NCBI RefSeq assembly: GCF_045037415.1
Contig: NZ_CP173438.1
DNA length: 64,000 nucleotides
Direction: 5' to 3' (one strand)
Source of the DNA: Escherichia coli
GTDB lineage: Bacteria > Pseudomonadota > Gammaproteobacteria > Enterobacterales > Enterobacteriaceae
Shown here: piece after piece, positions 45,301 through 48,300 of the stretch
Layout of the letters: the number at the start of each line of letters is the position of its first letter
Position numbering within the stretch: position 1 is the stretch's first letter
Made by a program: the position numbers

Positions 45301-48300
45301 ATTGGTGATGTTGCTGAACGTTGCGGGATTAATCCTGTCACTCTCCGGGCCTGGCAACGCCGCTACGGTTTGTTAAAACCACAACGCAGTGAAGGCGGAC
45401 ACCGACTCTTTGATGAAGAAGACATACAACGCATCGAAGAGATCAAGCGTTGGATAAGTAATGGCGTTCCTGTAGGCAAAGTTAAAGCATTACTGGAAAC
45501 TACCCGCCAGGATACGCAAGATGACTGGAGCCGCCTGCAAGAAGAGATGATGTCAATTCTTCGTATGGCTAATCCAGCCAAACTACGCGCGCGAATTATT
45601 TCACTGGGTCGAGAGTACCCAGTAGATCAATTGATTAATCATGTTTACCTTCCTGTTCGCCAGCGTCTCGTGCTTGATCACAACACCTCCCGCATTATGA
45701 GCAGTATGTTTGACGGCGCATTAATTGAATACGCAGCGGCCTCACTTTTCGAAATGCGCCGTAAGCCCGGTAAAGAGGCCATTCTGATGGCGTGGAATGT
45801 TGAAGAGAGAGCACGATTGTGGCTGGAAGCATGGCGTTTATCATTGTCAGGATGGCACATTTCTGTTCTTGCTGATCCCATTGAATCGCCGCGCCCGGAA
45901 CTGTTCCCAACGCAAACATTGATTGTCTGGACAGGCATGGCACCAACGAGAAGGCAAAACGAACTTTTACAACACTGGGGTGAGCAAGGTTATAAAGTCA
46001 TCTTTCATGCCCCCTAAATTCACCTTTATCCCGCCCCTTAGACAGAATGTTATAATCTGAACCCACAACAGCGTTTGTAGCGGAGCTGGTCCGTTGCAAA
46101 ATGCTCACCGGGAGAATTCAGGTAATCCCCCTTTGACACTTTGTACATATCACAGCCAAAGGACAGACCAGATTGAAGTGGTAAAACCGATCGTGCACAC
46201 TACGCAGTCTCACACCTAACAAGAGGTTATTATCCTGATGGATCAGGTCGTTGTTTTTCAAAAGATGTTTGAGCAAGTGAGAAAAGAGCAAAACTTCTCC
46301 TGGTTTTATTCAGAATTAAAACATCACCGTATTGCACATTACATTTATTATCTGGCTACGGATAACATCAGAATTATTACTCACGATGACACGGTTTTGT
46401 TATTAAGAGGAACCAGGAACCTGTTAAAAGTTAGTACGACCAAGAACCCAGCTAAAATAAAAGAGGCCGCATTGCTTCATATTCGCGGAAAATCTACATT
46501 TCGGGAATACTGTTCAACACTGGCAGGCGCAGGCGTTTTCCGGTGGGTTACTGATGTTAATCATAACAAACGCAGTTACTACGCCATTGATAATACGCTT
46601 TTATATATTGAAGATGTAGAAAATAATAAACCATTAATCTAGCTAAAGTTGGGAGCTTAAGAAATGCTTCATAATTCAGTAAGGCATTAGCATAATGGAA
46701 ATAAAAGTGCAGAGACCATCCCTATGGATGATTAATACTGTCTTTTTATTGCTTCCCATAAATAATCACCAGACCAATACGATCAAATTGATATTTGAAA
46801 TGTGTTCACTTGACTTTTGATACGTTATTTTATAATGGTTAACATATTTATAACAACAACGGGCGTGTTATACGCCCGTTACCGTTTTTAACACATGCAG
46901 AAATTACATATTCTTGATGATCGCGTCACCAAACTCTGAACATTTCAGCAGTTTAGCGCCTTCCATCAGACGTTCGAAGTCATAGGTTACGGTCTTCGCA
47001 TTGATTGCGCCTTCCATACCTTTAACAATCAGGTCTGCGGCTTCAGTCCAACCCATGTGGCGCAGCAGTATATAAAAATTATGTATTCAACTCGCTGATA
47101 TTTAATCATAAATATTATTTTCTTGTCTTTGTATTAGCCAAAATCAACTTTATTCAACCGTTTGATTTCATTGACGTTCGTTTTTATTTTGGGGAAAGAT
47201 TTTCTCTACCATTTATATCAAAATTACAAGTCTACATTTTATTAACATCTCAATACATGTGTGGCCTTGCAAGCCATTGCGAGGCCTTATGTGTCTCAGT
47301 TTTGTCCCGCCTTGTATTACGACTTGCATAGCCAATGAAGATAAACGTGACGACAAACAAAGCAGCTGTCTTCTTTTCTTTCACACTTTCCCCACTCAGC
47401 AGCATGCATACCTTCTACTATAACTGTAGTGAATGTCTATTATGAGCGAACTGCGGACATCGTGGAGACAACATGCTGCTGGGTGCGGATATCCCATGGC
47501 ACGTCATATCGCTCGCCGTATTACTTGTTATTTTTTTGAAACGAGAAGTTGATACAATTCCTTCAGGGATAAGGCTAATAACTCATTCTTCCTGATGAGA
47601 TCTTTATCAGCGTCTATACCCTCTGCGCATGATTCATTTAAATAGTTCAGTGTTTCCTGATCATCATCCAAGCATTCATAGCTGCCTGAATAAAATTCAT
47701 CGCAACTTGCTTTGTTATTTTTGTCAATGTAACCAATGCATTGAATCACGCCTTTAACAACTTTAGCAGCAGAAAAAACAAAGTAACTGCAGTCATTTAT
47801 ATAGCGTTCAATATCAAAAATCATATAAAAATAGTGCATAGAGTGTTTTTCAATTTCAAACTCACTTGAAATCATAGCTATTTCACATTCAAGGTCTTTC
47901 AGACCATCTAACATTATGGAAAGTTTACATTGTTTTTCTTGCACAGTTTCATACTTAAATGACTCTCTCCCCTTTGCCCTGACATTTATTCTTTCTTCAA
48001 TTGCATAAATATAAGCAGGATATACACGCGACCACACTTGGTTTATTTTTAGGATTAACCGGCCTCTTTTCAGCCTTTCTTTTGTAGCTATAAATTCTGC
48101 ATATAGCGCAGCATCCTCTTCGCACCATACATCAACTTTTCGTTTATAACCCAACTTTAATTCTTTCCCTACGCATTCAGGAAACAAAGGATCAAAGTCC
48201 TTTAAGTATTCAAACTCACTTAGATAGAATCCTGTCTCATAACGATTAAATAATTTCCTAAACTCTTTCCCACTTAAGGTTTTCATTGTATCAATCACTC

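Follow-up and report, generated by a model that had tools for sequence, protein, structure and literature searches.

Junction of a probable phage 21-type prophage with the displaced 3' end of icd in Escherichia coli

Several elements inserted into the 3' end of icd, the isocitrate dehydrogenase gene of Escherichia coli, have been described, and here they are compared with a junction located in a stretch of 64,000 nucleotides from an E. coli genome (contig NZ_CP173438.1, assembly GCF_045037415.1; the whole stretch is called the window, and positions are counted from its first letter). The e14 element inserts after icd codon 362 and is accompanied by a 165-bp icdC duplication (PMC11148124), and a shared attB for phages 21 and e14 is stated in the title of Wang et al. 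1997 (cited in PMC12803456). In phage 21 (OL657228.1; M61865.1), the attP follows the same order as found here, that is, arm-type sites, terminator, 53-codon icd copy, core and b-region; its record contains three arm-type sites (consensus YYTTCCCCAAAA), the terminator, and an 'ICDH-like' pseudogene equal to the last 53 residues. Finally, pathogenicity islands called PAI-icd, with Iss and Sit, have been reported in strains 536, CFT073, UTI89, RS218, IHE3034, S88, APEC O1, LF82 and others (PMC7545054). Based on the comparisons presented below, the icd fragment at 46904-47067 of the window is almost certainly the attR of a lambdoid prophage of phage 21 type (Jouyvirus/Bievrevirus-like) that has inserted into icd.

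On the minus strand, an open reading frame (ORF) at 46904-47056 encodes 50 amino acids starting at an internal Met, and it matches positions 367-416 of the 416 positions in the NADP-isocitrate dehydrogenase profile (NCBIfam PRK07006, E 4.5e-22). When the region is aligned with intact icd, the DNA homology runs on past this ORF to 47067; therefore, the displaced native 3' end, an icdC-type pseudogene on the minus strand, is 164 nt long (46904-47067) and consists of the stop codon (46904-46906), 53 codons (46907-47065) and 2 nt. A preliminary description of this DNA had correctly recognized the Icd C-terminus in a 156-bp minus-strand segment for the last ~50 residues, but this length was too short, and the sharp end of icd similarity that it placed at ~47063 is indeed abrupt but lies 4-5 bases away, at 47067/47068. 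Its remarks on the surroundings hold as well: across the whole window, neither an icd body upstream of the stub nor a second copy of the stub sequence was found, the fragment is not part of an intact icd, and from 47068 the DNA becomes AT-rich, with a GC fraction of 0.37-0.40 over 47001-49000 versus ~0.50 typical of the window. A chance match is excluded because the stub and the native icd 3' end of related prophage-free strains of sequence type 131 (ST131) do not differ at any base (100% identity). By alignment, the icd fragment is the host's original gene tail, displaced by a phage 21-like insertion. In genomes identical to the window, the Prokaryotic Genome Annotation Pipeline (PGAP) labels the same stretch a partial isocitrate dehydrogenase pseudogene with a missing N-terminus, and the displaced tail accounts for this annotation.

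The other end of the insertion can be seen in H105, an ST131-type genome that is 99.99% identical to the window over 44487-64000 and 99.998% identical over 1-44587; the window accordingly belongs to an ST131-type chromosome. In the prophage part, the only differences between the two are a substitution at 62611, in the tape measure gene, and a 1-bp indel at 63685, in the G/T tail chaperone region, which PGAP marks as 'frameshifted' in H105. Many complete genomes, those of ST131 strains among them, also match the 3.8 kb around the junction at 100% identity. In H105, a second copy of the repeat found at the junction lies ~48 kb away and forms the 3' end of an intact icd, with a core-to-core distance of ~47.9 kb; int is located 114 bp from the icd stop codon and is preceded by xis, and the intact icd is followed by rluE. 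The second att core and the integrase that the preliminary description had expected at the far end are thus both present in H105, ~48 kb off. Since H105 shows a second core, an integrase and a separate intact icd, it contradicts both the notion that the fragment lacks a partner within prophage-length distance and the notion that it belongs to an intact icd gene.

The attR copy of the repeat occupies 46850-47067 and is a 218-bp direct repeat shared with the attL end, comprising the icd terminator region and the last 164 nt of icd. Against the far-end segment of H105 (1794-2010), it shows 94.5% identity, with 11 mismatches and 1 gap (blastn). In a four-way alignment, attB was represented by strain 2822, attR by the window, attL by H105 and attP by phage 21, later also by phages 4A7 and D2. 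At 21 of the 21 variable positions of 46850-47067, attR is equal to attB, which was taken from a prophage-free sister ST131 strain. From 47068, attR leaves attB and tracks attP, whereas attL does the reverse and tracks attB. The variable position nearest to this switch is 47057, which is G in attB and attR and A in attL and in the attP of phage 21, 4A7 and D2; the adjoining 47058-47067 (TGGCGCAGCA on the plus strand, TGCTGCGCCA in the icd sense) is the only switch-adjacent stretch identical in attB, attR, attL and all attP sequences. Because 47057 is still host-type in attR and the sequence from 47068 onward follows attP, strand exchange is bracketed to 47058-47067. According to these att-site alignments, on which the 10-bp bracket rests, the crossover lies within 47058-47067, with TGCTGCGCCA as the core in the icd sense. 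The comparison of the fragment with the intact icd 3' end that had been proposed at the outset therefore yields the crossover core once the empty site and the phage attP are added. The attR boundary at 47067/47068 is likewise the end of the icd' homology in phage 21, 4A7 and H105.

The attL copy, which is fused to icd, carries phage alleles and is nearly identical to the attP of the free phage 4A7, to which it is closer than to phage 21; the attL allele is therefore phage-derived. Gene conversion between the repeats was considered as a cause of the mosaic look of attL relative to phage 21 and was rejected, attL being simply another, 4A7-like phage allele. The record of phage D2 (OM475427.1, ~28390-28650) runs in its middle past the att core into the icd body, in the attL configuration, and is a 'partial genome' from lysogens; it is probably derived from the prophage form and not from virion DNA or a variant attP.

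The position of the exchange also bears on how the element entered icd. Phage and host share 218 bp at ~94-95% identity, which is sufficient for homologous recombination, and RecA-dependent recombination through this icd homology, with no integrase acting at a specific core, could in principle join the two. However, the exchange falls in the terminal 10 bp of the 218, leaving every variable position in attR host-type, whereas an even spread would place it there in a fraction of only ~10/218; the boundary is the same as in K-12 with e14, an independent lysogen, and falls where the homology ends in each attP that was compared, and a dedicated integrase and excisionase lie beside the site. Recombination of this kind is accordingly very improbable, and site-specific integration at the icd core is preferred. 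A synthetic empty site, in which window 46300-47067 was joined to the H105 icd body, is present contiguously at 100% identity in prophage-free genomes, including O25b:H4-ST131 strains. Out of 5,426 complete E. coli genomes, 2,911 have ycgX contiguous with icd, 1,073 contain the attR junction and 1,676 the attL junction (at least 80% coverage for both junctions).

The preliminary description had attributed the junction to a phage that integrates into the icd 3' end and brings a replacement tail, and the att alleles, the arm and the integrase all agree with this; it had left the phage unnamed, and the present analysis points to a phage 21-type lambdoid phage and not to e14. At the protein level, the H105 integrase shows 99.2% identity with phage 21 Int and 60.5% with e14 IntE. 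For the xis-int-icd' DNA, the identity with phage 21 (M61865.1, OL657228.1) amounts to 98.8%, and this match ends at the base equal to window position 47067. At the opposite side of the core, the arm at 47068-48567 shows 100% identity, over 1500 bp, with the phage 21 DNA just past its icd' segment, and 47068-53218 as a whole is 99.1% identical.

The e14 element of K-12, the cryptic icd prophage of that strain, uses the same attB, its icd homology starts at the same TGCTGCGCCA, and it leaves a stub of ~165 bp on the ycgX/bluR side (PMC11148124, PMC6379469). The shared attB and the ~165-bp stub therefore do not discriminate between e14 and phage 21-type phages, and an e14-type element would be expected to leave the same start of homology and the same duplication (PMC11148124). 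What separates the two is the remainder of the element: the e14 sequence past the core is unrelated to the window arm, which is that of phage 21; the integrase is far closer to phage 21 Int than to IntE; and e14 is a 15-kb defective element without sitABCD or a lambda tail module. There is hardly any probability left for an e14-type junction. In addition, the K-12 e14 replacement alters Icd residues, whereas here all copies encode identical residues.

From the phage 21-type arrangement, the following mechanism may be proposed. The attP, directly downstream of int, comprises three arm-type sites, a copy of the icd terminator, the near-identical last 53 codons, a core of ~10 bp and the b-region arm. 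The phage tyrosine integrase (Int21) would exchange strands in the core TGCTGCGCCA, inside icd and 164 nt before the stop codon; that Int catalysed the integration event is what we infer. At attL, outside the window, the phage-borne 3' end and terminator are fused in frame to the icd body, so that Icd remains intact and unchanged in sequence. At attR, the host's last 53 codons, stop codon and terminator are left as a promoterless stub by ycgX/ymgL, abutting the phage b-region. Translation gives the same residues for the stub in the window, the icd end of H105 and the copy in phage 21, and lysogen and non-lysogen Icd share one accession, WP_000444487.1; the nucleotide differences are therefore silent and the enzyme is unchanged. 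These alignments document how the junction is built, what each of its arms is, the 10-bp bracket and the preservation of the protein.

The hairpin beside the stub is part of this arrangement. A scan for terminators found a 10-pair stem at 46858-46880 followed by ACCGTTTTTA, in line with the hairpin and T-run first noticed at ~46858-46890, and the structure is stable on both strands. The whole hairpin spans 46852-46889, with the core stem at 46858-46880, a plus-strand T-run to 46889 and an icd-sense stem at 46852-46886. Its fold has an energy of -19.9 kcal/mol (z -3.2) in the icd sense, on the minus strand, and of -15.6 kcal/mol (z -2.8) on the plus strand; the icd terminator is apparently bidirectional. 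The phage 21 record labels the homologous hairpin 'terminator'. The hairpin at 46858-46880 is the native icd terminator and belongs to the duplicated segment; since it lies inside the repeat, the hybrid icd receives the phage copy and the stub retains the native one.

Beyond the phage arm, the window continues with the genes of a lambdoid prophage. The Mn/Fe ABC transporter genes sitABCD (48985-52434, plus strand; names from PGAP in an identical genome) form a cargo, or moron, in the b-region. A lambda-type tail module follows on the minus strand at 52526-64000 and runs off the window; it begins with two small ORFs and was assigned by NCBIfam and PHROG tail families and the H105 annotation. 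It contains a side tail fibre gene (53107-55134, minus strand) with a continuous ORF of 675 aa, lambda J (55187-58669, minus strand; NCBIfam lambda_TipJ, 2387.7 bits), I/K/L/M on the minus strand between J and the tape measure gene, and the tape measure gene itself (61041-63602, minus strand; tape_meas_lam_C, E 1.4e-134), with the start of G/T beyond. The tail genes are 95.6-96.7% identical to those of phage 21. Since sitABCD, tail fibre, J, I/K/L/M and tape measure follow the junction, a lambdoid prophage starts at 47068 and exits the window. In H105, the modules that come next are head, terminase, lysis (with iss beside it), Q, nin, O/P, cI/cro, exo-bet-gam, xis and int, and an inverse autotransporter gene and an alpha/beta hydrolase gene are inserted between P and the nin genes. 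The side tail fibre gene is mosaic, with 53218-54131 having no phage 21 match, and the PGAP annotation of H105 divides it between an N-terminal piece called 'incomplete' and a 'head spike fiber domain' protein.

This gene content bears on whether the junction belongs to a working prophage. The element might instead be a fixed, immobile pathogenicity island, a grounded prophage remnant, and the fragment a fossil scar rather than a working attR. The label 'PAI-icd' in the literature (PMC7545054, PMC9686529) would suit such a remnant, as would the shorter versions of 12 kb in ED1a and 29 kb in UM146 (PMC7545054). The non-phage cargo, namely sitABCD, iss, and the inverse autotransporter and hydrolase between P and nin, points in the same direction, as does the tail fibre piece that PGAP marks as incomplete in H105. 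On balance, we regard a fossil scar as unlikely. All lambdoid modules, including xis and int, are present in order, both att sites are intact, and a genome of 47.9 kb is within the lambda packaging range. Moreover, phage 21, a viable phage, has sitABCD in its own genome, the int-attP region is 99% identical in the free temperate phages 4A7, 3W, 1W, Perceval, ev207 and PhiR63_2, precise empty sites occur in sister ST131 strains, and the related NC-SV has been described as an intact prophage (PMC12803456).

Some points nevertheless weigh against reading the fragment as the attR of a phage 21-type prophage of this kind. The integrase and attL lie outside the window and were deduced from H105, which has 3 differences in 64 kb; PGAP calls two tail genes of the H105 prophage pseudogenes; the 10-bp bracket presupposes that no gene conversion between the repeat copies took place after integration; and the evidence that this prophage may excise is indirect, consisting of the precise empty sites in sister strains and the free phages with 99% identical int-attP. 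Of the two pseudogene calls, one corresponds to the normal programmed G-T frameshift, and the other concerns an ORF that is continuous in the window.

The phage arm of attR together with the attP-proximal b-region extends over 47068-48984; it is AT-rich and matches phage 21 beyond its icd' segment. An exact copy of the arm-type Int-site motif, TTTTGGGGAAAG, is located at 47187-47198 on the plus strand, 120 bp from the core; when judged by the phage 21 consensus, this motif alone is not significant window-wide (1.68 matches expected at up to one mismatch). On the int side, three copies of the arm-type site are present in both H105 and phage 21. Two minus-strand ORFs follow, one of 51 aa at 47250-47405 that equals phage 21 gp32, and a conserved one of 256 aa at 47528-48298, between attP and sitABCD, that equals phage 21 gp31 and matches phrog_20520 (function unknown) with E 1.4e-177. 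For the 256-aa ORF, no Pfam match was found even at E 10 and no credible match among PADLOC models (best E 0.0034, over 25 residues). A strong plus-strand hairpin at 47255-47294 (-23.1 kcal/mol, z -3.56, 0 of 200 shuffles as good) overlaps the minus-strand ORF at 47250-47405. It lies ~190 bp past the core, in the arm into which transcripts reading through int would run when the phage is free, and the sib retroregulator of int in lambda has a matching position and orientation. It is conceivable, albeit improbable, that 47068-48984 holds an undescribed function, such as a sib-like hairpin and/or a lysogenic-conversion or defence gene in the 256-aa ORF. No match to an Rfam family was found in 40000-56000. 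A small RNA (sRNA) like svsR/co293 of the icd-integrated NC-SV was considered for the AT-rich arm and rejected, its published position being the 3' end of cI, outside the window.

The host flank left of the junction contains bluF, bluR, ycgX and ymgL, of which ycgX (46238-46642) and ymgL (46695-46820), both on the plus strand, were taken from the PGAP annotation of identical genomes. In prophage-free strains, the ycgX/ymgL flank is contiguous with intact icd. In K-12 (NC_000913.3, 1211578-1212650) and many other strains, iraM and ymgK sit between icdC/icd and ymgL; these two genes are absent from the window (46643-46903) and from ST131 genomes, in which ~80 bp separate ymgL from the icd stop codon.

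Elsewhere in the window, a minus-strand gene at 42-1814 encodes a reverse transcriptase of the retron Ec67 family, 590 aa long and equipped with a Toprim endonuclease domain (PADLOC RT-Toprim_I-C, E 5e-214). PGAP gives the same retron Ec67-family name in an identical genome, and the gene lies beside dhaR in an island with a GC fraction of 0.33-0.40 (low GC over 1-3000). Around the reverse transcriptase gene, Rfam at the gathering threshold gave no match, and no search was aimed at the msr/msd RNA. The sRNA C0299 at 31149-31227 (minus strand, 111.9 bits) is the only Rfam match in the whole window, and a truncated hlyE pseudogene is located at 31349-31675. A cluster comprising an iron ABC transporter, ModD and a TonB-dependent receptor occupies 10727-17153, between treA and ymgE.

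The junction itself is already known: it is a textbook phage 21-type prophage junction, common in E. coli, with nothing new in the junction as such. It provides a clean worked example of a phage that lands in an essential-pathway gene without harming the host, and it delimits a virulence-associated prophage (with Sit for metal uptake and Iss for serum resistance) that is common among extraintestinal pathogenic E. coli (ExPEC), ST131 included. Compared with phage 21, whose genome measures 42.9 kb, the prophage here is larger at ~48 kb. The sitABCD genes are 99.1% identical and sit at the same b-region position (OL657228.1, 21967-25416), and the prophage as seen in H105 carries iss, the inverse autotransporter and the alpha/beta hydrolase as cargo beyond that of phage 21. 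Phage 21 is a late-1950s isolate from Paris sewage and already contained sitABCD.

As in lambda, a tyrosine integrase lies beside attP with an excisionase, arm-type sites flank the core on both sides, the tail genes and b-region adjoin attR, and int adjoins attL. Whereas the lambda attB is intergenic (gal-bio), the target here falls within a protein-coding gene, for which the phage makes up by bringing a gene end of its own. According to a note in the phage 21 record, the Int of phage 21 resembles lambda Int only distantly.

Among the closest known systems are also the PAI-icd elements of ExPEC and adherent-invasive E. coli (PAI-536-icd, PAI-CFT073-icd, PAI-UTI89-icd, PAI-EC14142-icd of ST131 and NC-SV of NC101), which are insertions of 46-54 kb at the same icd site that carry sitABCD and iss and have an integrase of Φ21 type immediately downstream of icd (PMC7545054, PMC9686529, PMC12803456); in the present case, sitABCD is found in the window, and iss and a length of 47.9 kb in H105. 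Because sitABCD is part of the phage 21 genome, the Sit system of PAI-icd is the moron of a viable phage, and this implies that PAI-icd is a phage 21-like prophage whose sitABCD cargo was present in a phage isolated in the 1950s. In the papers on PAI-icd, the element is regarded as an island, and little attention goes to the displaced icd stub or to the crossover core; otherwise, there is no difference of substance, and the element in the window is essentially the ST131 version of the published PAI-icd.

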